63,851 nucleotides of DNA, filler included, from an uncultured Candidatus Sumerlaeota bacterium (GCA_964389675.1; 6 parts of 6 records of this genome joined end to end with filler, not necessarily neighbours in it); one strand, 5' to 3'. Positions 3,329 to 56,201 are shown, counted from the whole stretch's first letter. Notes: a model not told the origin generated them from the letters alone. Numbers and translations: made by a program.

Positions 3329-3666
3329 GACCGTGCCTCCCATAGTTATTCCAGAGATTTAATCAAAGTGTGCATAAATATATTTTATTATGCTTTTATA
3401 TCATAAACAAGGATAATATCCTAATTTACAGGGAAAAAATCTATTAATGCATATGTGCTGACATATATGCAAAAGGATTAGAAGCTGTCTAAAATACGAC
3501 TTTATCACTTTATTTTCTATGACCTGGACACAATGTTTTTCAATATGGCAGTTAACGGTCTGGGGAGTGTGTCATTATCCCCGCAGCAGGCTGTAATGCC
3601 TGAATATATTGCTTTTCTGCGTTTTTGAAATGGTCGTTTTTATTGTTTCTGGTTTTAAGATCCGGT

Positions 3667-4750: not shown

Positions 4751-5248
4751 CTACATAGGCCAGAAATGATTGTCAAACCATATATTTTCCCTGAGGCGTT
4801 CATCAATTTTCTGAAGGTAGTCAAGATGCTTGTTTTCCCATTCTGACAGCCATTTATACAGCTTTTTTTCTTCGGGGTCATCAGTTGCTTGTGCCTGTTC
4901 TGAATATACTTTGATAGCCTTCTGTTCCATGTTAATTGCTGCAGATACGGCAGCAGCCTCAAAATCTGCAGTACCTATAGCTGATACTATTTTGGTGGTC
5001 AGTATCCTGTCTATGGTGCTCCTCATGCCTTCAAGATCCTGATCCATGAAAGAGCCTGTTTTATTAAAATGCAGGAACTGTTCAGATAGAAGCTCAATAT
5101 GACTCTGTTCTTCCTTTGCCATCATACTGAAAAAATCGCTTATATCCCTGTTTGAGGAATGGCGTGCAAATGATTCATAGAGCGCTTTGCCCCTTTTTTC
5201 CAGAAGGATTGCATTTTTAAGAATATTCATTGATTTTGTTTCAGCCAT
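4751..5248 (-). CDS. Ferritin-like/rubrerythrin family protein
   Basis: Two E...ExxH di-iron motifs (EEQSH, WENKH). Confidence 0.85.
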   Translation of the reverse strand: MAETKSMNILKNAILLEKRGKALYESFARHSSNRDISDFFSMMAKEEQSHIELLSEQFLHFNKTGSFMDQDLEGMRSTIDRILTTKIVSAIGTADFEAAAVSAAINMEQKAIKVYSEQAQATDDPEEKKLYKWLSEWENKHLDYLQKIDERLRENIWFDNHFWPM

Positions 5249-13035: not shown

Positions 13036-13135
13036 NNNNNNNNNNNNNNNNNNNNNNNNNNNNNNNNNNNNNNNNNNNNTTAATTAATTAANNNNNNNNN
13101 NNNNNNNNNNNNNNNNNNNNNNNNNNNNNNNNNNN
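13036..13135. other. Artificial contig linker
   Basis: N-run containing TTAATTAATTAA (stops in all frames). Confidence 0.98.
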
Positions 13136-25820: not shown

Positions 25821-25920
25821 NNNNNNNNNNNNNNNNNNNNNNNNNNNNNNNNNNNNNNNNNNNNTTAATTAATTAANNNNNNNNNNNNNNNNNNNNNNNN
25901 NNNNNNNNNNNNNNNNNNNN
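25821..25920. other. Artificial contig linker
   Basis: N-run with TTAATTAATTAA. Confidence 0.98.
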
Positions 25921-37983: not shown

Positions 37984-38083
37984 NNNNNNNNNNNNNNNNN
38001 NNNNNNNNNNNNNNNNNNNNNNNNNNNTTAATTAATTAANNNNNNNNNNNNNNNNNNNNNNNNNNNNNNNNNNNNNNNNNNNN
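37984..38083. other. Artificial contig linker
   Basis: N-run with TTAATTAATTAA. Confidence 0.98.
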
Positions 38084-47374: not shown

Positions 47375-47474
47375 NNNNNNNNNNNNNNNNNNNNNNNNNN
47401 NNNNNNNNNNNNNNNNNNTTAATTAATTAANNNNNNNNNNNNNNNNNNNNNNNNNNNNNNNNNNNNNNNNNNNN
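47375..47474. other. Artificial contig linker
   Basis: N-run with TTAATTAATTAA. Confidence 0.98.
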
Positions 47475-47564
47475 ATACCGGTAAAGGAAGTAGTATTAAA
47501 TCCGGAGAAAAATTGATGGAAAATATTTTTTAATAAAAGGCGACAAAAAGGTTGACACATACCG
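47475..47564 (+). mobile_element. Right end of an IS3-family element
   Basis: Transposase tail IPVKEVVLNPEKN*, then GGCGACAAAAAGGTTGACACATA, matching the IR at the left end in contig 4. Confidence 0.6.
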
Positions 47565-47699
47565 GCAGACTAACTTTGAGATCATCAACAAAGGCACAGA
47601 TTGTTGAATTCGTTTTAAAATGTATTTTATTCAGACTATTGAAATTACGATACATCTTTAGCATTGGTTCTTCTAAGCGTAAGTGCGATTTAGGAAGGC

Positions 47700-48140
47700 A
47701 TGATTATAGAAACATCAAAGAGTTCATTGATTGAGGAAATGTTCCAGATGAAAAATATGGAGATGAGAAACTCCGTTGTCTCATTAGTTGCAAATTTTGT
47801 ACTTTCCTTGGCAGTATTACCATTGTTTATCCCACCTTTCCGGATATATTCTTTAAATGAGTTAATTGAAGCACTTTACTGGCAAGTAGTAAGCATGGTT
47901 GGATGGCCAATAGGGTTATTGGGTGGGTGTGTAGCAATACTTATGCAAGGCAAATTGAGCAACCTGGGAACTTTGGCAATAATGCTCATTTATCCTGGCA
48001 TATGGATACTAATCATACGTACATTTAAGGCTAAGCGATCTGGGCGATGGGAATTCATACTGCTGCACATACTCCTGACTGTTTCGTTCGCTGCTATCTG
48101 GTATCAAGTTTTGAATGGTTATGATTTTATGGCAGGATAA
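47700..48140 (+). CDS. Hypothetical membrane protein (probable gene cassette)
   Basis: Four hydrophobic segments; followed by an attC-like remnant; start uncertain. Confidence 0.65.
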   Translation: MIIETSKSSLIEEMFQMKNMEMRNSVVSLVANFVLSLAVLPLFIPPFRIYSLNELIEALYWQVVSMVGWPIGLLGGCVAILMQGKLSNLGTLAIMLIYPGIWILIIRTFKAKRSGRWEFILLHILLTVSFAAIWYQVLNGYDFMAG

Positions 48141-48146
48141 ATGATA

Positions 48147-48191
48147 TTCAACAAGAAAAATGAACTCCAAAAAAAGAGCCCCCGTTGGGCC
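48147..48191 (+). other. Degenerate, internally deleted attC-like site
   Basis: ATTCAACAAGAAAATGAACT just after the stop, and core GTTGGGC at 48184 opening the amylase cassette. Confidence 0.5.
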
Positions 48192-48208
48192 AGCAGGAGA
48201 TGAGCAAG

Positions 48209-49705
48209 ATGAAAGAATACAACGGCGCGATGATGCAGTTCTTCCATTGGTACACGCCAGCGGAAGGTTCGCTGTGGAATCAGCTTGCTGAACAGGCGCA
48301 GTCACTATCCAGAGCTGGTATCACATCAGTCTGGCTGCCGCCAGCATACAAGGGAGCAGCCGGAGTTGAAGATACAGGCTACGGAGCCTATGATCTCTTC
48401 GATCTTGGGGAATTTGATCAAAAAGGAGCGAGACGTACGAAGTACGGAACACGGGATGAGTATCTTCATGCTATTCAAGCTGCCCATGCAGCAGGAATGC
48501 AGGTGTACGCCGATGTCGTCTTAAATCACAAACTGGGAGGCGACAAGGAGGAAAAATTCAAAGCGACTCCATACAATCCAGCCAATCGCAATGAGCCCAT
48601 CGGAGATTTGCAGCTCATCAAAGCCTGGACCCATTTCACTTTTCCCGGCCGGGGGACGAAGTACTCATCACTGCAGTGGCACTGGTGGCATTTCAACGCC
48701 ATCGATACCAACGCCATGGCAGGCGATGCTTCTGCTGTCTATCTGTTTGAAGGGAAGGCGTTTCATAACGAGGTCGATAAAGAGAAAGGCAACTTCGACT
48801 ACCTGATGGGGTGCGATCTCGATATCGCCAATTCTGACGTGCGGAAGGAACTGCTTTACTGGGGGGAATGGTATACCGATCTGACCAGTGTGGACGGTTT
48901 CCGCTTTGATGCCGTTAAGCATATTGCTGCTGACTTCATCGTCGAATGGCTCAATCACATGCGCAACCATACTGGGCGTAACCTCTTTGCAGTCGGAGAA
49001 TATTGGTCGGGGATCGACGAGGCACTGGAGCATTTCCTCAATGTGACCGGGGGCAACTTGATGCTTTTCGACACCGGACTTCACTACAGCTTTGCAGTTG
49101 CCGGACGCGAGGAAAAGGGCTATGATCTTAGAACCATCCTTGACCGAAGCCTGGTCAAGAGCCATCCCGATATGGCTGTAACTCTTGTAAGCAACCACGA
49201 CACACAACCGTTACAATCGCTCGAATCGGTCGTTGAAGCCTGGTTCAAGCCTTTGGGGTATGCAATCATTCTCTTGCGGCGAGGCGGTTACCCCTGCGTC
49301 TTCTTTCCTGATTACTACGGAGCTGATTACAGGGGTGTGGGTAAAGACGGTAATGAGTACGATATCAGCATGCCGAGTCATAAGTATCTGATTGACTGTT
49401 TCCTCAACGTACGGAGGATCCATGCTTTCGGCGACCAGAACGACTACCTCGATCACCCGAACTGCATCGGGTGGACACGTACGGGAAACGAGGAGCATCC
49501 CGGCGGAATGGCGGTCCTGCTGAGCAATGATGCAGACAGCGCCAAGTCTATGAATACTGGATCGCCAGGCATCATGTATGGCGATGCTACAGGACACATC
49601 AAAGAAACTGTAACCACAAATAACGAGGGATGGGGAGAGTTCAAGTGCATGGGAAGGTCGGTTTCTGTGTGGGTTCCCGTTGATGAATCGCAATCATCCG
49701 GCTGA
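48209..49705 (+). CDS. amyA: Alpha-amylase (GH13, cytoplasmic/liquefying type)
   Basis: MMQFFHW, GYGAYDLFDLGEF, DVVLNH, GFRFDAVKH, AVGEYW, NHDTQP; no signal peptide; visibly higher GC than flanks. Confidence 0.95.
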   Translation: MKEYNGAMMQFFHWYTPAEGSLWNQLAEQAQSLSRAGITSVWLPPAYKGAAGVEDTGYGAYDLFDLGEFDQKGARRTKYGTRDEYLHAIQAAHAAGMQVYADVVLNHKLGGDKEEKFKATPYNPANRNEPIGDLQLIKAWTHFTFPGRGTKYSSLQWHWWHFNAIDTNAMAGDASAVYLFEGKAFHNEVDKEKGNFDYLMGCDLDIANSDVRKELLYWGEWYTDLTSVDGFRFDAVKHIAADFIVEWLNHMRNHTGRNLFAVGEYWSGIDEALEHFLNVTGGNLMLFDTGLHYSFAVAGREEKGYDLRTILDRSLVKSHPDMAVTLVSNHDTQPLQSLESVVEAWFKPLGYAIILLRRGGYPCVFFPDYYGADYRGVGKDGNEYDISMPSHKYLIDCFLNVRRIHAFGDQNDYLDHPNCIGWTRTGNEEHPGGMAVLLSNDADSAKSMNTGSPGIMYGDATGHIKETVTTNNEGWGEFKCMGRSVSVWVPVDESQSSG

Positions 49706-49721
49706 CAAAATGCAATAAACC

Positions 49722-49748
49722 GGCCCAACAGAGCCATCGACGGCGACT
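49722..49748 (+). other. Left half of the amylase cassette attC (R'' plus L''-like arm)
   Basis: GGCCCAAC is the exact complement of GTTGGGCC (48184-48191); followed by AGAGCCATCGACGGCGAC; no right half found. Confidence 0.6.
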
Positions 49749-49778
49749 GAGTAAGCCCACAGGAATCATCGGGAAATA

Positions 49779-50030
49779 TGTTCCTGGCCCTCCGTGGAAC
49801 AAAAGAAATGCACCTTTTGGAGACATCAGTTCTCCATTATAATTAGGATTATATTCAATGCTATAATGGAAGGGTTGAAAAATGGTCAAAAGGAATATGC
49901 ACAAGAAGATACAGCATTTTAAGAAGCAAAGGTTTACCAAAGCAGAGATCATTAGAGAGACCGGATTAAACAAGAGGACAGTCTCCAAGTAATATGATAT
50001 GCCGGAGAAGAGTTACATTCGGTATGTCAA
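49779..50030 (+). mobile_element. IS21-family remnant (left end and istA HTH fragment)
   Basis: ATG 49882 gives MVKRNMHKKIQHFKKQRFTKAEIIRETGLNKRTVSK*YDMPE (IstA-like HTH) with a premature stop. Confidence 0.6.
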
Positions 50031-50316
50031 GAGGGCTGATACAAGGGTCATATGGTGGGAAGTTTTTCTTGAGCATCCATCCCCTTCTTCCACCAGGCAT
50101 TTTGAGCTGGAGGCTGCATTTATTGATCCTGAAGGGAATGAATTAACCAGGCACGTGAAGGACAATTCATATATAGATCCCGGTTGGACCAGCTCATATC
50201 ATACTCTGGGCTTTGGCTGGCGGGAAAAGGGCAACTGGAAGCCAGGGATCTACAGAGTGGAGTTTTATTATCAGATCAAGAGAATAGCCCACGGAAGCTT
50301 TGAGATAGCCCCATAA
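49999..50316 (+). CDS. Hypothetical protein, probably a C-terminal fragment fused to the IS remnant
   Basis: Beta-rich WKPGIYRVEFY domain; begins in frame with the istA fragment. Confidence 0.45.
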   Translation: MPEKSYIRYVKRADTRVIWWEVFLEHPSPSSTRHFELEAAFIDPEGNELTRHVKDNSYIDPGWTSSYHTLGFGWREKGNWKPGIYRVEFYYQIKRIAHGSFEIAP

Positions 50317-50332
50317 AAAAAGGAGAGAGATA

Positions 50333-51199
50333 ATGAAGAAAATCATTATTGCCGGAATACTGATATTTTCTTTCTGTATCCATTACAGCAGCCAGGATCT
50401 ATCTCCAGAAGATCATCTTGTCCTGGCTCAGAAAAAGCTCCAGGATCTAATTGTGCCGGATGATCCTGCATCACCATTCTTCAAAAAAGCCTGCAGTATT
50501 ATTAATGAAGCTCTGCTAAAATACAGGCAGTACAGACTTGCCTCTGAACAGGAGGAAGTAAGCCAGCAGGAAGAACACATATTAATGTCGCCTGCAGAGC
50601 ATCTGTATATAGCAGGTGATGAAATGGCCCAGACAAGAGCAGCTATAATGATAGCATCCCATAGCCTGACCATTGAGCAGAGCAATGGCCTGCAACTGCT
50701 GACTGAATCTGTCCAGCTTGTGGATGATGCCCTGAAACAGCTGGAGAGTACCAGCCTGTGGAAGGTCCACTGGATGCCTGGAGCCCGGCTGATAGTATCC
50801 GCCCCTCCTGACCTTGCCTGGCGCTTGCCCCTGGAATCTGAGCTTCTGCGACTAGTCAGGACAGGACCGGATGACAAACCTGCAGCTCTATTTTATATAT
50901 ACAGGGTACCTGATGAGGAAATAGCCAAAATCCCTGAAAAAGGATATATTGACAGCAGTATACAGAGATTTAAGAAACGTTTCCCTGACATGGCCATTAT
51001 TGACCGCGCTGAGCCTGCTAAGAGTAAATATTCCTTTACATATGAATATTTATGGGAAGGGGAGCTTATAAGGTCCCATGTGGCTATCCATTCTTTTAAA
51101 GACCTTATAATTGAGCTCAATTATGCAGCCCCCTCTGCTATTTTTGACCATGCAGAGGCAATGGCAATAATTGACTCCCTGAAGATGATCCGCCAATAA
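50333..51199 (+). CDS. Hypothetical secreted protein
   Basis: AGGAG RBS; signal peptide MKKIIIAGILIFSFC. Confidence 0.75.
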   Translation: MKKIIIAGILIFSFCIHYSSQDLSPEDHLVLAQKKLQDLIVPDDPASPFFKKACSIINEALLKYRQYRLASEQEEVSQQEEHILMSPAEHLYIAGDEMAQTRAAIMIASHSLTIEQSNGLQLLTESVQLVDDALKQLESTSLWKVHWMPGARLIVSAPPDLAWRLPLESELLRLVRTGPDDKPAALFYIYRVPDEEIAKIPEKGYIDSSIQRFKKRFPDMAIIDRAEPAKSKYSFTYEYLWEGELIRSHVAIHSFKDLIIELNYAAPSAIFDHAEAMAIIDSLKMIRQ

Positions 51200-51204
51200 T
51201 AAGA

Positions 51205-51332
51205 GGCCTGACATTTTTCATATGCCACATAAAAGAACCTCATAGTTTATCCCTGTTCTTTTCCAGAAAAAACTTGAAAATTATTAAAAAATAAATAAAC
51301 TTAAAAGTGTAGGTCTCTGAGGTAGATATGAG
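51205..51332 (+). repeat. Copy 1 of the integrase leader repeat
   Basis: About 130-bp direct repeat of 53868-53995 (TTCCAGAAAAAACTTGAAAATTATT...TGTAGGTCT.TGAGGTAGATATGAG). Confidence 0.85.
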
Positions 51333-51605
51333 GGAAAAAGTAAAAATTTATGTTGGGAGCTCAAGAAATAGATTTAATAAAGCTATGTTTGCTTAATGCT
51401 TTTTAAAGAAATTTCTTTATTTAAAGGTATTAGTGGGTGCGTAAATAGGCTGTTGCCGCAAATAGAACTGTAGCTATGGTGAAACCATGAAACTATATAG
51501 CACATCATTTAGGAGATAGTAATGTGGTGCATAGTAGGCTGGCTGCTCTGCTTCATATTGCCATCCAGTTTCTGTGGATCTATAGGCAATAATAAGGAGG
51601 ATATA

Positions 51606-51986
51606 ATGAGAATCTACGTGATTTATTCTTTAGTCTTTTTTTCGATAATATTGATTGGATGTGGTATTACGCAAAATAGAAAGCAAATCACCATTGAGAC
51701 TTTTACAAATGCACTGGAATCTAATGGAATGTCAATCGGAGAACGAAGTGAAAAGCTGTACGGGCTTTTAATGGCAATTGATGGATATGGAATTGAGGTT
51801 AATGGTGACTTTATTGAGGTTTATCAGTTTGATACCACTATTAAATCTGGAAAAGAAGCCATAGAAAAATGGAATAAAGAGGGCTTCATGGGACAGCCAG
51901 TGATTGTGAGGAAGAACCTGATGATGTTTCTAAATAAAAATCATAAAAACTGGAAGCAAATAGAGAATATATTTAATAGCTTATAG
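51606..51986 (+). CDS. Hypothetical lipoprotein (probable cassette)
   Basis: AAGGAGG RBS; lipobox LIGC; followed by an attC-like hairpin. Confidence 0.75.
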   Translation: MRIYVIYSLVFFSIILIGCGITQNRKQITIETFTNALESNGMSIGERSEKLYGLLMAIDGYGIEVNGDFIEVYQFDTTIKSGKEAIEKWNKEGFMGQPVIVRKNLMMFLNKNHKNWKQIENIFNSL

Positions 51987-52001
51987 TTTCTATATAGAAT
52001 T

Positions 52002-52096
52002 ATATAATGATCACATATGCTCGCTCGGATAGCAATATGAGAGGTCCCTGTTCCTCATTGCCCTGCTTTTACCATCTGGCTATGTGATTGTTAAAA
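52002..52096 (+). other. attC-like imperfect hairpin
   Basis: TAATGATCACATA...TATGTGATTGTTA arms (11/13), inner AGCA/TGCT and ATGAG/CTCAT pairs, core GTTAAAA. Confidence 0.55.
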
Positions 52097-52120
52097 ATAA
52101 AAAAAAGGGAAATTAATATT

Positions 52121-52942
52121 ATGACAAGAATAAAAAAAAGGATAAAATCTATAATTTTACCTACATCAGAGGAATCTGTAAGGCATTTATTCAGTTTGCA
52201 TTCTAAGGAACTTGGGTTTGAGATCCTGAATATACAGAAAGCATTTCCTGATTGTACAGCCATAGATTATAGCAAAGCTGAGCCAAAAGAAGTCGATATA
52301 GAATTAGAATTTAATGCATTAAATTTTGTAGCACATGGTCATATTAATCAGATGCTGCCAGATAGAGAATATATAATAGTATGCTGGACATTGAAGAGTA
52401 GAAGGGGTATCCCTCAAGACATTGAAATTATTGTTCTTGAAGAAATGGTAGATATTGTATCGCCGAGTACCAAGCAGATACAGACTGTAATGGAAAAGCC
52501 AATATATAGTATAATTTCCTATAATCCTTCACTTAATAAGCAGCCAATAGAGATATGGGAGGAAATAAAGATATTCCGTACAAATACTAAATTTAAGGGT
52601 AATAGGATACCTAGAGGTTCCGTGATTGTTCTGCATTCTAAGGGAAAGCTTGTTGGAGAGTTTACAGTTGCAAAATATCATTACTTAGAAAAGCCACCAT
52701 CAACTGATGAAGAGATTAGATTTTATAACCTTACTGCATTCCCAATTGGATTTAGTGAAGACCCTATGGTTGATCCTATGATTAAAAATAATAATGATTG
52801 GCTTAAAGGTCATATAGTGTATTATAATTTTAAGAAATATGATCCGCCTGTTCCTCTTGATGTTCTTAAAAAGAAACTATCAGGATATGGGCGTTTAAAT
52901 ATTGATTATGAGGATTTGCAAAGAATTCGTGGGAAAAGATGA
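52121..52942 (+). CDS. PD-(D/E)xK-type nuclease fused to a PUA/EVE/ASCH-like domain (putative)
   Basis: FPDC...IELE..LNF..HGH..IVCW at the N-terminus; IPRGSVIVLH..GKLVGEFTV...FKKYDPPVPL at the C-terminus. Confidence 0.65.
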   Translation: MTRIKKRIKSIILPTSEESVRHLFSLHSKELGFEILNIQKAFPDCTAIDYSKAEPKEVDIELEFNALNFVAHGHINQMLPDREYIIVCWTLKSRRGIPQDIEIIVLEEMVDIVSPSTKQIQTVMEKPIYSIISYNPSLNKQPIEIWEEIKIFRTNTKFKGNRIPRGSVIVLHSKGKLVGEFTVAKYHYLEKPPSTDEEIRFYNLTAFPIGFSEDPMVDPMIKNNNDWLKGHIVYYNFKKYDPPVPLDVLKKKLSGYGRLNIDYEDLQRIRGKR

Positions 52943-53144
52943 ATAAAAAAATATAGCCATATTATCTACAGTACAACAATTCAGCAATATCAGGGGAAAT
53001 GGCAGAAAAAGGACGCTACTTTTATCGTAATAGAGCCTTTTAGAAAAAAGCAGCAAAAAGGGCTAGGATATGGATTATCCAATAAATTTGCCTCAAAAAG
53101 GGAGAGCCCTATGCATTAATGGGGGAAGTAATATAAAGGTTATT

Positions 53145-53282
53145 TTTTTGACAGAAAAATAATTGATATCTGCAAAAAATAAGCAAATTTATGAGTGCTA
53201 ATACTTGAGGGAATATATGAGCAAAATTGCTGAAAAATACTAGCAGATGTTAAGGCTAAAGAAGTACAATTCAAATACATAC
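53145..53282 (+). pseudogene. Copy 2: decayed 5' end of the tyrosine recombinase
   Basis: ATG 53217 gives MSKIAEKY*QMLRLKKYNSNT, homologous to MSEIIEKYNKMLRLERYS at 53991. Confidence 0.7.
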
Positions 53283-53484
53283 AAAGAGCAATCATATTGT
53301 ACATCCAGAATTGAAAGAGTTTCAGGAAATATAAAAGACAGAGAAGCAGTAATATCGTTTATCTGGGACTTCTAAGAGTTGGGTATACATGGCATTGAAC
53401 TGATGGCAGATTCATCTGTCTGATCATATTGGCCAATCTGCTTTAAAAAAAATATTTCAAACTAAAGCTTCAGGAGGAATAATT

Positions 53485-53688
53485 ATGAACTTCAAAAAAG
53501 TCTTAATCAGTTTTGTTATCGGGTTTGCGATTACCCTAATTGTGAGCGGTATAGTGACATATCTTTATAGCTTGGGCTTCCATGAAACGGCAGAAATAGA
53601 TTGGGAAACATCTTTCCGCTTAGCCATCATACTTGGGATACTATTTCCGGTTATCGAAGCAAGAAAGGGCAGATCTGAAGAAAAATAG
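53485..53688 (+). CDS. Small membrane protein (probable cassette)
   Basis: AGGAGG RBS; two TMs; followed by an attC-like site. Confidence 0.7.
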   Translation: MNFKKVLISFVIGFAITLIVSGIVTYLYSLGFHETAEIDWETSFRLAIILGILFPVIEARKGRSEEK

Positions 53689-53710
53689 AAAGCAAATCAG
53701 AAAGACGAAA

Positions 53711-53835
53711 GGCCAACAAAGGCTAAAATTAAGCGGGCGGAAAATCTGAAAGGTATTGCATCTAAAAACTCTATCGCAAATTGACTGCAGCGTGCTCAGA
53801 AATACCCGCCGGTTGCTAGCCTTAACCATTAGCTT
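53711..53835 (+). other. Degenerate attC-like site
   Basis: GGCCAAC-AAAGGCTA..GCGGG / CCCGC..TAGCCTT-AACC-ATTAGCT; core GTT appears changed to ATT. Confidence 0.6.
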
Positions 53836-53867
53836 CAATTATTCAGAAAGAGGTACCAAAGGTAAAA

Positions 53868-53995
53868 GGCCTTACATTCCATATATGCCGAATAAAAAAA
53901 ACAAATAGTTCTCCATATTCTTTTTCCAGAAAAAACTTGAAAATTATTCAAAAATAAATAAAATTAGAAATGTAGGTCTTTGAGGTAGATATGAG
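53868..53995 (+). repeat. Copy 3 of the integrase leader repeat
   Basis: Direct repeat of 51205-51332, ending at the integrase ATG. Confidence 0.85.
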
Positions 53996-54416
53996 TGAAA
54001 TTATTGAGAAGTACAATAAGATGCTAAGATTAGAAAGATATAGCCTGCCTGTATATCGAGATATTTCATGCTCTCCACCCAAAATTAAAAAGGCCTTAGG
54101 AAGAATAAAAGGCATAAAAGCATTAATTTCAAAATCCATCTTAGAACTTCTGAGAGAATATTGCCTGAATAACAGGCCTAATACATTTGGAATGGTACTA
54201 TTTAAGCCCGGAACAAAAAAGCATGCAACAGTGCATACACTCAAGCATAGCTTAGCAGCACATCTATTGAAAAAAAGAACAGACCTAAGATATATTCAGG
54301 AACTGCTGAGACATTCAAATTCCAAGACTGCTGAAATTTATACACATATAACAAGCAGAGGCTTGGATAAAATAGTAAGCCCTCTGGATAATTTGATAAA
54401 GGCAGGCAAATTATAA
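53991..54416 (+). pseudogene. Internally deleted tyrosine recombinase (integron-integrase-like)
   Basis: N-terminal LRLERYS joined to C-terminal ATVHTLKHSLAAHLL..DLRYIQELLRH..KTAEIYTH..SPLD; HxxR arginine is K, LGH is LRH, box I missing. Confidence 0.85.
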
Positions 54417-54420
54417 AAAG

Positions 54421-54505
54421 TGGATATAGAAAAAATATGTGCATCGCATGATACATGCCATAATGGAAGGATATACGCAATGCGGATACACGGATGTTAT
54501 TTGAC
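54421..54505 (+). other. Putative attI-like site downstream of the recombinase
   Basis: Repeated GGATATA/GGATACA motifs ending in core GTTATTTGAC (54496), which is 9/10 complementary to R'' GTCATATAAC of the next attC. Confidence 0.55.
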
Positions 54506-54527
54506 ATAATCCTTCAGTAGGGAAAAA

Positions 54528-55310
54528 ATGAATTATAAAATGCAGTTTGTTCACCACGATCTTGGAAATCTTCAAAGAGGTCAGATAGTTGAAATTACAC
54601 TATCTGGGAGTGCAGCAAATGTTCAGCTTTTAGATAGTAGTAATTTTAACAATTACCGTAATGGCCGCAGGTATAGTTACACAGGAGGATTAGCAAAAAA
54701 ATCACCAGTAAGATTAGCAATACCAAGATCAGGATACTGGCATGTTGCTGTTGACATGAGAGGCTTAAAAGGAACAGTTAGGTCATCGGCAAGAGTCCTA
54801 CCTGGACCTTTGCCAACATTACAAGAACGGCCTCTTTCATCTATTCCATCATTAATGAATGGCAATCCTTTTTTAGAAAATGAAGACTTTAATCCTGAAT
54901 TTGATGTTTTTGTATCACATGCGTCAGAAGATAAAGACGAAGTAGTAAGACCTTTAGCAGAAGCTTTAAAGGCATCAGGATTAAAAGTTTGGTATGATGA
55001 ATTTGAATTAAAAATTGGAGACAGCTTACGTAAAAAAATTGATAAAGGGCTTGCTAACAGTAAATTTGGAATTGTAGTACTTTCAAAAGATTTCTTTAGA
55101 AAAGGTTGGACAAATTATGAGTTGGATGGAATTGTTTCAAAGTCAGTTTCAGGCGAACAGATAATTCTTCCGATTTGGCATAATATTACTAAGAAAGAAT
55201 TGCTTGACTTCAGTCCTTCTCTGGCAGATAAAGTTGCTAGAAGTACAACTACTCATACAATAGAAGAGATTTCAGAAGAAATAGCAGAAATGGTTTTAGG
55301 TAAAACATGA
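54528..55310 (+). CDS. DUF1883-TIR domain protein (putative NADase), gene cassette
   Basis: N-terminal DUF1883-like domain (ANVQLLD..NF..Y..G, IPRSGYWHVAVD); TIR DVFVSHASEDK, VWYD, WTNYEL with catalytic Glu, ILPIWH. Confidence 0.85.
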   Translation: MNYKMQFVHHDLGNLQRGQIVEITLSGSAANVQLLDSSNFNNYRNGRRYSYTGGLAKKSPVRLAIPRSGYWHVAVDMRGLKGTVRSSARVLPGPLPTLQERPLSSIPSLMNGNPFLENEDFNPEFDVFVSHASEDKDEVVRPLAEALKASGLKVWYDEFELKIGDSLRKKIDKGLANSKFGIVVLSKDFFRKGWTNYELDGIVSKSVSGEQIILPIWHNITKKELLDFSPSLADKVARSTTTHTIEEISEEIAEMVLGKT

Positions 55311-55318
55311 TGGAGTAC

Positions 55319-55416
55319 GTCATATAACAGGGCGTATATGCGGCGTCGCTTAGCTCCTTGGCCTTCGGCACATTCGGCATTCGCCGAACGTCATATATGC
55401 CCGGAACGTTGTGTGC
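55319..55416 (+). other. attC recombination site
   Basis: R'' CATATAAC, L'' GGGCGTATATG, L' CATATATGCCC (10/11), inner CGGCG/CGCCG, R' GTTGTGTG; begins 8 bp after the TIR stop. Confidence 0.8.
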
Positions 55417-55431
55417 AATGCCCAAATTAAT

Positions 55432-56101
55432 ATGAGTAAAGATACTAAAAAATATCCCTTATCTATCCGTAACTGGCCTGAAGATGACAGGCCGAGAGAG
55501 AAATTGTTAAAGCATGGCGAGCATGTTCTAAGCAACGCAGAATTGCTGGCGATTTTAATAAGGACGGGAACAACGGGTAAAAGCGCTATTGATTTAGGAA
55601 GGGAGTTGCTGAACAGGTTCAAATCCTTACGGACGATGAGCGGAGTAGATATATCGGAGTTTAAAGAAATTTCTGGTTTGAAAGATGCCAAGATTGCACA
55701 AATAAAAGCGGCGATTGAGTTGGGACGGCGGATGATGAGTGAGGAGAAGGCTTTTCATGGTGTTGTAAAATCATCTGCTGATGTCGTGGATTTTCTAATG
55801 CCGTTAATGCGGGATTTAAAAAAAGAGCATTTTAAAATATTGCTACTGGATAGAGGCAATCATGTATCCGAAGTAATTGACATTGATGTGGGAACCGTGG
55901 ATCGGGCAAATCCGTCGGTGCGGGATATTCTAATGACTGCTTTGAAATATCAATCGCCTTCCATGATTTTGGTGCATAATCATCCATCGGGGAATATTGT
56001 GCCAAGTGATGCCGATAAAAGATTGACCAAAGATTTGATAAGAGCTGCTCTGGCAATGGAACTGCGGATTTTTGACCATGTAATCATCGGAGAAAATTCG
56101 T
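55432..56101 (+). CDS. radC: RadC (UPF0758, JAB domain) protein, 3' end at contig edge
   Basis: RPREKL, LSNAELLAILIRTG, E..F, HNHPSG..PS.AD, DHVIIG. Confidence 0.93.
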
Positions 56102-56201
56102 NNNNNNNNNNNNNNNNNNNNNNNNNNNNNNNNNNNNNNNNNNNNTTAATTAATTAANNNNNNNNNNNNNNNNNNNNNNNNNNNNNNNNNNNNNNNNNNN
56201 N
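56102..56201. other. Artificial contig linker
   Basis: N-run with TTAATTAATTAA. Confidence 0.98.

Follow-up and report, generated by a model that had tools for sequence, protein, structure and literature searches.

In integron biology, it is the insertion specific to the integron integrase, IntI, that is held to let a Xer-like enzyme recombine folded attC sites. A divergent intI gene is not strictly a defining feature, as an inverted group is known (PMC4889954, PMC3607928), and both Treponema (PMC3607928) and the Archaea (PMC9668308) have integrons on record that combine co-orientation with a 3′ attI. A related design, rAID-1, was reported by Ross et al. (2019) in 226 of 423 Bacteroidales genomes; it consists of a 5′ XerD-like recombinase, for which an identity of 44% or more to BF9343_RS08045 of B. 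fragilis is required, followed by co-oriented low-GC genes with conserved intergenic repeats “reminiscent of integrons” (10.1101/471110, PMC12247911). Here we describe contig C43 of an uncultured Candidatus Sumerlaeota bacterium (GCA_964389675.1), which fills positions 47475-56101 (8627 bp) of the window, meaning the whole 63,851-nucleotide stretch analysed. We consider C43 likely to be a decayed copy of an integron-like gene-capture platform that is run, in intact relatives, by a tyrosine recombinase of ~281 residues without the IntI insertion.

C43 shares its layout with the inverted-integrase integrons of Treponema denticola and the Archaea, in which the recombinase gene is transcribed towards an attI just downstream and the cassettes are co-oriented (PMC3607928, PMC9668308). 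Here too the recombinase gene is co-oriented with the array rather than divergent from it. All ten open reading frames (ORFs) within 47700-56101 lie on the + strand, and their Pfam content is unrelated (alpha-amylase, DUF1883 with TIR, RadC and a recombinase fragment, with five ORFs matching no family), which bears out an initial annotation of this DNA in which that interval, approximately all of C43, was described as unrelated co-oriented cassettes with the recombinase pointing into the array. The same annotation had placed the first core of the TIR cassette 80 bp downstream of a recombinase on the same strand, behind GGATAYA repeats, and we confirm this arrangement: the core G (54496) lies 80 bp past the recombinase stop codon (54416), with three GGATAYA copies before it (54422, 54469 and 54484). 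Together, the GGATAYA repeats, a palindrome (TATACGCAATGCG.ATA) and the crossover core G(54496)|TTATTTGAC make up an attI-type site at 54417-54505 (+ strand), delimited by an alignment of five copies.

These five copies come from C43, from a second contig of the same genome (C47), from the sister species G001, once behind an intact recombinase gene (G001:C131) and once as an orphan (G001:C57), and from the locus L021 (79% identical). G001 is the only other species of the genus that was compared with the genome of the window, G000, whose assembly is 93.8% complete. Conservation among the five spans the GGATAYA repeats and the palindrome and ends with GATGTTA, beyond which the sequences are unrelated, so that an attI-type site beside an integrase gene is followed by varying first cassettes: the TIR gene on C43, another gene on C47, an ORF of >600 residues in G001 and a large ORF in L021, which by eye, and without a family search, we take to encode a DNA methylase. 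Cassette content, the invariance of which the initial annotation had named as an argument against its reading, varies from copy to copy and also from one species of the genus to the other. At the DNA level, only the recombinase/attI region and a fragment resembling an insertion sequence (IS) of C43 recur in G001; as a control contig also matches G001 merely in patches of 66-92% identity, the absence of the C43 cassettes there is weak evidence. The orphan copy (L114, ~4765-4945, minus strand) is 86% identical over 80 bp and has no recombinase gene before it. The word TTAYCGGTAAGAT stands after the attI on C47 and after the last attC of that contig (L101 ~3590-3606 and ~196-210), as well as after the orphan attI in G001:C57 (L114 ~4815-4829), and could represent what was once the right half of an attI without cassettes. 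In most of 80 loci from other genomes, inspected by eye, the 150 bp past the stop codon contain an inverted repeat and, no more than a few bases on, a GTTRRRY core, which lies ~40-150 bp past the stop.

Further likeness to the inverted-integrase integrons is found in the cassette boundaries, which have RYYYAAC...GTTRRRY cores, a G|TT crossover and starts complementary to their own R″ box. The amylase cassette begins with the R′-type core GTTGGGCC (48184-48191, + strand; G|TT, no hairpin upstream), of which GGCCCAAC at 49722-49729 is the exact complement (8/8), while the TIR cassette start GTTATTTGAC at 54496-54505 pairs with GTCATATAAC at 55319-55328 at 9 of 10 positions; both pairings had been noted in the initial annotation, and both were borne out. 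Exact 8-mer pairing between core and R″ occurs at only 3 of the 3045 other ORFs of the genome, a background measured by a test that the TIR pair, with its one mismatch, would fail. The attC of the TIR cassette (55319-55414, + strand; recovered by models R1 and R3) comprises an R″ box (GTC)ATATAAC, a stem GGGCGTATATG/CATATATGCCC, a 3′ bulge GGAAC and an R′ box GTTGTGT. R1, a covariance model built only from ten Desulfitobacterium sites and independent of the window genome, finds it at 55322-55414 on the + strand with 26.7 bits (E 5.6e-4), the sole match in the window below E 1 and well above the next at 11 bits; R3, a later rebuild that has this very site in its training set, gives E 2.5e-6. 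R3 also matches two C47 sites from outside that set (L101 815-965 and 205-286), so that RYYYAAC/GTTRRRY cores around an imperfect hairpin are seen, with the models built here, at 55322-55414 and at these two sites. Of the remaining candidates on C43, the 5′ half of the amylase cassette attC (49722-49793, +; R″ GGCCCAAC) ends at an IS21-like remnant beginning at 49794 and has no model match, and the site of a 67-residue cassette (53711-53834, +; GGCCAAC-A-AAGGCTA ... TAGCCTT-AACC-ATTAGCT) shows by eye the AAC-A-stem...stem-AACC-ATT layout, with ATT in place of GTT, and is kept on C47 (fold z 0.02; no model match at E<=10). The weak 8-9-bp inverted repeat at 52010-52088 (+), given as a hairpin at 52002 in the initial annotation, has no AAC core and no model match (z -1.00) and is not supported as an attC; the site given at 48147 is a GTT core alone, without a hairpin. 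What remains on C43 is one good attC, one mutated attC and one attC truncated by an IS. Two hairpin searches were abandoned: a genome scan for AAC...GTT plus a stem gave a background of ~0.13 matches per kb with little enrichment on C43, and an energy-constrained scan recovered the TIR site together with false positives within the amylase gene while missing the C47 sites.

The recombinase itself survives only in pieces. The 141-residue ORF at 53991-54416 (+ strand) is an internally deleted remnant of an IntI-related tyrosine recombinase of ~281 residues, in agreement with the earlier reading of a deleted local copy: it keeps the first ~18 and the last ~70 residues, has lost ~140 residues including box I, and carries HTLKHS where intact proteins have HTLRHS. 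Both of its ends align with the 281-residue proteins, at 72-74% identity and with 60% of the query covered, and it scores 73.8 bits on TIGR02249, the IntI model. Three partial copies are stacked on this contig, all on the + strand. Copy A (51203-51337) contains only the upstream region and first codons of a recombinase gene, 51259-51337 being 92% identical to 53922-54000 over 79 nt; copy B (53217-53357; C43:5743-5883) is a decayed N-terminal fragment of a second gene, with stops (tblastn, 42.6% over 47 residues); and copy C (53866-53990) is the upstream region of the remnant just described, belonging to the repeat family that also covers copy A. The truncated gene recurs on C47 (L101, 7065 bp, minus strand) with 88.6% identity over 131 residues; on that contig, an N-terminal stub, the 67-residue gene, an attC, the recombinase remnant and an attI stand in succession before other cassettes. 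The stacking of stubs A, B and C on C43 and the module common to C43 and C47 (stub B, 67-residue gene, attC, stub C, attI) suggest that whole platforms were relocated or copied from one recombination site to another before decaying. With its catalytic residues lost, the platform in this genome is dead and the local element is a fossil.

Intact homologues were identified nearby and far afield. The sister species encodes an intact 281-residue protein, 100% identical to P0002, and a scan of one genome per species turned up 588 relatives, the best 80 loci of which were kept; these are mostly Bacteroidota, together with Nitrospirae, Chlorobiaceae, Spirochaetes, Clostridia, unclassified bacteria and a complete Desulfitobacterium chromosome. 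On TIGR02249, with a cut-off of 265 bits, six intact homologues reach only 213-245, in two stretches that skip positions ~181-240, and six short-family sequences lack the 31+10 columns, corresponding to the IntI-specific insertion, that are present in 6/6 aligned IntI proteins above the cut-off. The insertion near patch III (intI_Cterm) that goes with an above-cut-off TIGR02249 score is therefore absent from the intact homologues, and they are not ordinary IntI with an upstream attI, a possibility for which the initial annotation had asked that intact homologues be compared with the IntI model. One difference from the inverted-integrase integrons is in the enzyme, which is short, lacks the ~40-residue insertion and falls below the IntI family cut-off.

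Nor are these proteins typical Xer recombinases. They resemble XerA, XerC and XerD in length (~280 residues), in domain content (PF13495 and PF00589) and in scoring around the NF040815 cut-off (213-230 bits against 220 for the six), and among solved structures XerA proteins come first (4a8e, E 1.6e-43; 5hxy), then IntI4, in two stretches, and then XerD. Unlike XerC and XerD, they lie far below the respective family cut-offs (188-201 bits against 335 for XerC, 183-199 against 330 for XerD) and share the C-terminal SPLD motif with IntI in the alignment; and unlike Xer resolvases, which act at dif sites, they head variable cassette arrays. The genome of the window, moreover, has a separate XerD of its own. 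A quick maximum-likelihood tree of 30 short-family rows (four others with in-frame stops having been dropped beforehand), 8 IntI, 12 XerD and one further recombinase of this genome (encoded on C8) places IntI and the short family together against XerD with support of 100. Within that group, the IntI sequences make up a single clade (100), the long branch of which emerges from within a comb of unresolved short-family groups, a topology compatible both with a sister group and with secondary loss of the insertion. On sequence comparison, the short recombinases are the closest relatives of the integron integrases, without the IntI-specific insertion. Many relatives are longer (360-590 residues) through an N-terminal extension (P0071, P0075, P0079 and P0118 among others; ORFs of ~380 residues in L022, L063 and L074), and two of the extended proteins have a precomputed match to PF07443 (HARP), whereas the clade of the window has the plain 281-residue form.

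The initial annotation had also proposed a check for arrays downstream of intact homologues, and there the association is consistent. Contigs end <1 kb after the recombinase gene in 40 of 80 loci, as against <1 kb before it in 10 of 80, an excess that is expected if assemblies break in a variable array punctuated by repeats; since contig ends cluster just downstream of the gene, draft assemblies systematically lose the arrays. Where contigs run on, rows of co-oriented ORFs of 100-400 residues follow at spacings of 110-250 bp. The Desulfitobacterium array has at least 13 sites, and in its spacers an R″ box (xxATAAC) and a single unpaired A lead into an 11-bp stem, whose loop and return arm are succeeded by a bulge of 5-6 nt (GGRAC) and an R′ box (GTTAT); at the junctions checked by eye, the cassette start is complementary to its own R″. 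Across ten of these sites, a consensus fold shows compensatory double changes in 9/11 stem pairs, 95.7% of stem cells are paired compared with 31-41% when the arms are slid, and the observed covariation was reached by 0/500 shuffles. In an alignment of 38 sites from 18 loci, which was fitted to the model, 11/11 stem pairs co-vary. Sequence conservation among sites is limited to the AAC/GTT cores and the 3′ bulge. These sites differ from those of the inverted-integrase integrons in having a 5′ spacer of 1-2 nt set against a 3′ bulge of 5-6 nt beside the R box.

Applied to 82 loci, R1 gave 17 matches, all on the recombinase strand and downstream of it; the rebuilt models gave 38/38 and then 53/53 matches (the latter in 23 loci) in the same orientation and position, even though more than twice as much sequence was searched upstream (550 kb) as downstream (263 kb). 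Where at least 1 kb of downstream sequence was available, 22 of 40 loci have a model match. Cargo in the arrays of relatives includes toxin-antitoxin, GNAT, TIR and HEPN genes, and 19 of the 50 ORFs scanned (out of 83) match no family; such cargo is typical of chromosomal integrons, and its mixture of toxin-antitoxin, acetyltransferase, defence and unknown genes recalls the inverted-integrase integrons in particular.

The comparison with rAID-1 is closer in design than in content. Both have a recombinase heading co-oriented arrays with integron-like intergenic repeats (bioRxiv 10.1101/471110), and the rAID-1 definition, at least two co-directional downstream genes with GC of no more than 41%, is paralleled on C43 by the TIR and RadC ORFs, both on the + strand, and a GC fraction of 0.36-0.40 across 54001-56000. 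In contrast, rAID-1 is defined as an orphan immunity gene array of gut Bacteroidales, while cargo here is an amylase, a TIR protein and unknowns, hosts belong to many phyla, and no immunity family was found among the window ORFs or the 50 scanned array ORFs of relatives. The portions of the rAID-1 papers available describe no attC-type folded sites, G|TT junction or relation to IntI (10.1101/471110, PMC12247911). In one Bacteroidales-type order, 40 of 101 species genomes contain a homologue of the present recombinase, and Bacteroidales homologues share 41-61% identity with P0002; rAID-1 would fit as a branch of the same recombinase family.

Building on the observed anatomy, family relationship, downstream association of arrays and breakpoints at the core, we suggest how the intact form may operate. 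The gene of a tyrosine recombinase of ~281 residues heads the array and is transcribed towards its own attI, which lies within ~100 bp of its stop codon. Circular cassettes would be inserted at the G|TT of attI and released through exchange of an attC with another attC or with attI, excision joining folded attC sites built as AAC-A-stem...stem-5-nt bulge-GTT. Stems that vary in sequence yet stay complementary imply selection on intrastrand pairing, pointing to a folded single-stranded substrate, and the attC sites most likely act as folded single strands. We infer that the short recombinase itself may catalyse these reactions on folded single-stranded DNA, and speculate that the conserved asymmetric bulge beside the R box may replace, for strand choice, the extrahelical bases that IntI reads through its I2 helix. 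The central proposal of the initial annotation, a Xer-like group running a non-canonical integron with a 3′ attI, accordingly stands in so far as an insertion-less family heads arrays with a GTTRRRY core on its 3′ side; the running of the system, that is, catalysis, is the part that is deduced. More broadly, and more tentatively, we propose that a phylum-spanning lineage of ~280-residue enzymes, sister to or ancestral-like with respect to IntI, captures cassettes by recombining folded single-strand attC with attI although it has neither the I2 helix nor the IntI insertion, regarded in the field as the innovation behind this reaction, and is by design missed by standard finders; rAID-1 would be one of its branches, and integron-type capture would be common in Bacteroidota, some Firmicutes and barely sampled lineages. 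We regard this wider proposal as a serious possibility that falls somewhat short of probable.

Several observations weigh against these interpretations. The IntI insertion is reported to be necessary for attC recombination (Messier and Roy 2001, via PMC4889954 and PMC9668308; eLife PMC7790495). Of the five attC-like hairpins named in the initial annotation, the one at 55319 passes the covariance models and the other four do not match them at E<=10, and the bottom-strand DNA folds of all five are no stabler than dinucleotide shuffles (z +0.02 to -1.00). R2 and R3 are iterative rebuilds that include the window's own site in their training sets, and R1, run genome-wide with 150 of 1104 candidates scored, gave nothing at E<=1. 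For 18 of the 40 loci whose contig extends 1 kb or more past the gene, no model match was obtained, and some of these 18 (L074) show arrays of another site subtype. In a class 1/3-type resistance array and a Thiodictyon integron, both annotated as canonical, no canonical attC was recognised at E<0.8, the best R3 match being a weak one (10.9 bits, E 0.81); the models are narrow and miss canonical attC, and so do not establish attC identity in the strict sense. That the site model gives canonical attC no score also separates this locus from the inverted-integrase integrons, as does its dead window copy. R3 found nothing near canonical IntI genes, although those loci may hold no arrays. Finally, the 93.8% complete assembly contains no intact short recombinase, nor does the genome have the intact integrase of a functional integron, but remnants on C43 and C47 only, so that nothing here is active in cis.

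One alternative retains the platform but has it work by double-stranded Xer-type recombination, with conserved duplex arms bound around the AAC/GTT core, both strands exchanged, and hairpin potential arising as a by-product of the paired arms. A recombinase without the I2 helix and IntI insertion, whose best solved relatives are XerA proteins, would suit such a mechanism, as would the duplex-type palindrome TATACGCAATGCGTATA in attI and sites no stabler than shuffled sequence. Sequence-specific duplex arms, however, would not be expected to differ freely while remaining complementary, with double changes in 9/11 and 11/11 pairs, nor to leave only the AAC/GTT cores and the 3′ bulge conserved, and we judge this alternative to be unlikely.

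Standard tools would call C43 at best a cluster of attC sites lacking an integrase (CALIN), which it resembles in having an array without a working integrase, whereas the recombinase remnant and attI in cis, and intact relatives that show the matching enzyme, set it apart. If it were nevertheless an ordinary integron remnant of that type, its true partner would be a canonical IntI elsewhere or in unassembled sequence, for which an assembly 93.8% complete leaves some room, and the short recombinase would be a mere frequent neighbour. Yet no TIGR02249 match over the cut-off was found in any of ten genomes, a set made up of G000, G001, three Bacteroidales and five other genomes with arrays, of which three are complete chromosomes; the best match in G001 and in eight further genomes is the short recombinase itself, aligned in two stretches in those eight. 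With 53/53 site matches downstream of the short recombinase on its strand, and a conserved GTTRRRY core right past its stop codon at which homology between copies ends, this explanation is decidedly improbable. More improbable still is the absence of any system, in which case C43 would be an island of unrelated genes with a dead phage-type integrase and chance inverted repeats. Folds no better than shuffles, four of five sites without a model match and a short contig that could be mis-binned are all compatible with it, but chance is at odds with the match of the independent model R1 at 55322-55414, with the same module bearing different cassettes on C47, with exact core/R″ pairing at just 3 of 3045 background ORFs, and with an intact orthologue and conserved attI in the sister species. 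We therefore prefer to regard C43 as a decayed copy of a platform that belongs to the short recombinases.

The initial annotation had singled out this locus as a candidate for an undescribed system, a claim that holds in part. The 3′ attI, the co-orientation and the rAID-1 design are already in print, while three aspects appear to be unpublished so far, namely the relationship with IntI, the folded sites of attC type and the occurrence in further phyla: in the literature we found no paper on an integron integrase without the insertion, and none that connects such recombinases with any of the three, with the qualification that motif figures in the rAID-1 supplement may bear on site identity. 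According to the IntegronFinder 2.0 report, almost no integrons are found in Bacteroidetes and Firmicutes (PMC9024848), and the requirement of detection tools for the IntI insertion is one reason why Bacteroidota and Firmicutes have been reported as nearly integron-free. If our interpretation is correct, integron surveys undercount gene-cassette platforms, an insertion-less family with the whole integron layout would provide a natural test of the requirement for the insertion, and the rAID-1 arrays of gut Bacteroidales would gain a mechanistic frame. The window contributes to this a dead copy in a little-sampled lineage and a clear example of stacked, decaying platforms, rather than a working system.

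The window joins six whole contigs (C39, C40, C41, C42, C43 and C45) of a 58-contig, 3.57-Mb draft by five N44-TTAATTAATTAA-N44 spacers (13036-13135, 25821-25920, 37984-38083, 47375-47474 and 56102-56201). As the pieces are separate contigs, the flanks of C43 across the spacers are not its physical neighbours, and readings that span a spacer are unsafe.

The cargo of C43 (all + strand) begins with the upstream-most cassette-like ORF, a predicted membrane protein of 146 residues (47700-48140) with no Pfam or PADLOC match. It is followed by the alpha-amylase (GH13) cassette ORF (48185-49705; PF00128, 65 bits), the GC content of which is foreign (~49% against ~35%). The sequence that truncates the amylase cassette attC (49794-50027) is presumably a remnant of the 5′ end of an IS21-family element, as a short helix-turn-helix frame was recognised there by eye. 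It is 89% identical to a stretch of the sister species adjoining a 176-residue ORF (L110 = G001:C148, 870-1746), which we take to be IstA-like; both names were assigned by eye rather than by a family search. Next come two ORFs of 105 and 288 residues (49999-51199; GC ~46%), one of 154 residues (51522-51986; Pfam scan) and one of 284 residues (52088-52942; family scans), all without a family, and the 67-residue membrane protein cassette (53485-53688), of which C47 has a second copy. The DUF1883-TIR cassette ORF (54528-55310; PF08980, PF13676) matches PADLOC PDC-S66 with 242.9 bits as well as ThsB-like models, and is a candidate anti-phage defence gene. From the next cassette junction, a RadC-like (JAB) ORF (55411-56101; PF04002, PF20582) runs on until it is cut by the contig end. 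The word TTGTGTGCAAT begins both this RadC-like gene (55408-55418) and another gene on C47 (L101 ~815-825).

The other tyrosine recombinases of the genome are XerC/XerD-like (one on C3) or IS91-associated. Recombinase sequences on C41/C21 and on C8 were considered as pieces of a split integron integrase, and rejected. The former is an ordinary XerD gene broken by a contig end, split between the end of C41 (37658-37983) and G000:C21:1-534; because the contig ends overlap by ~17 bases, C41 and C21 are adjacent in the genome. The latter encodes a 287-residue tyrosine recombinase with an SPLD end, directly upstream of a 371-residue ORF (G000:C8:12165-14146, minus strand) that, read by eye, is presumably an IS91-family transposase. 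In the tree, the C8 protein occupies a long branch among the short-family recombinases, and a gene pair of the same type is annotated inside a canonical integron array on a Thiodictyon plasmid (L142 6407-8405).

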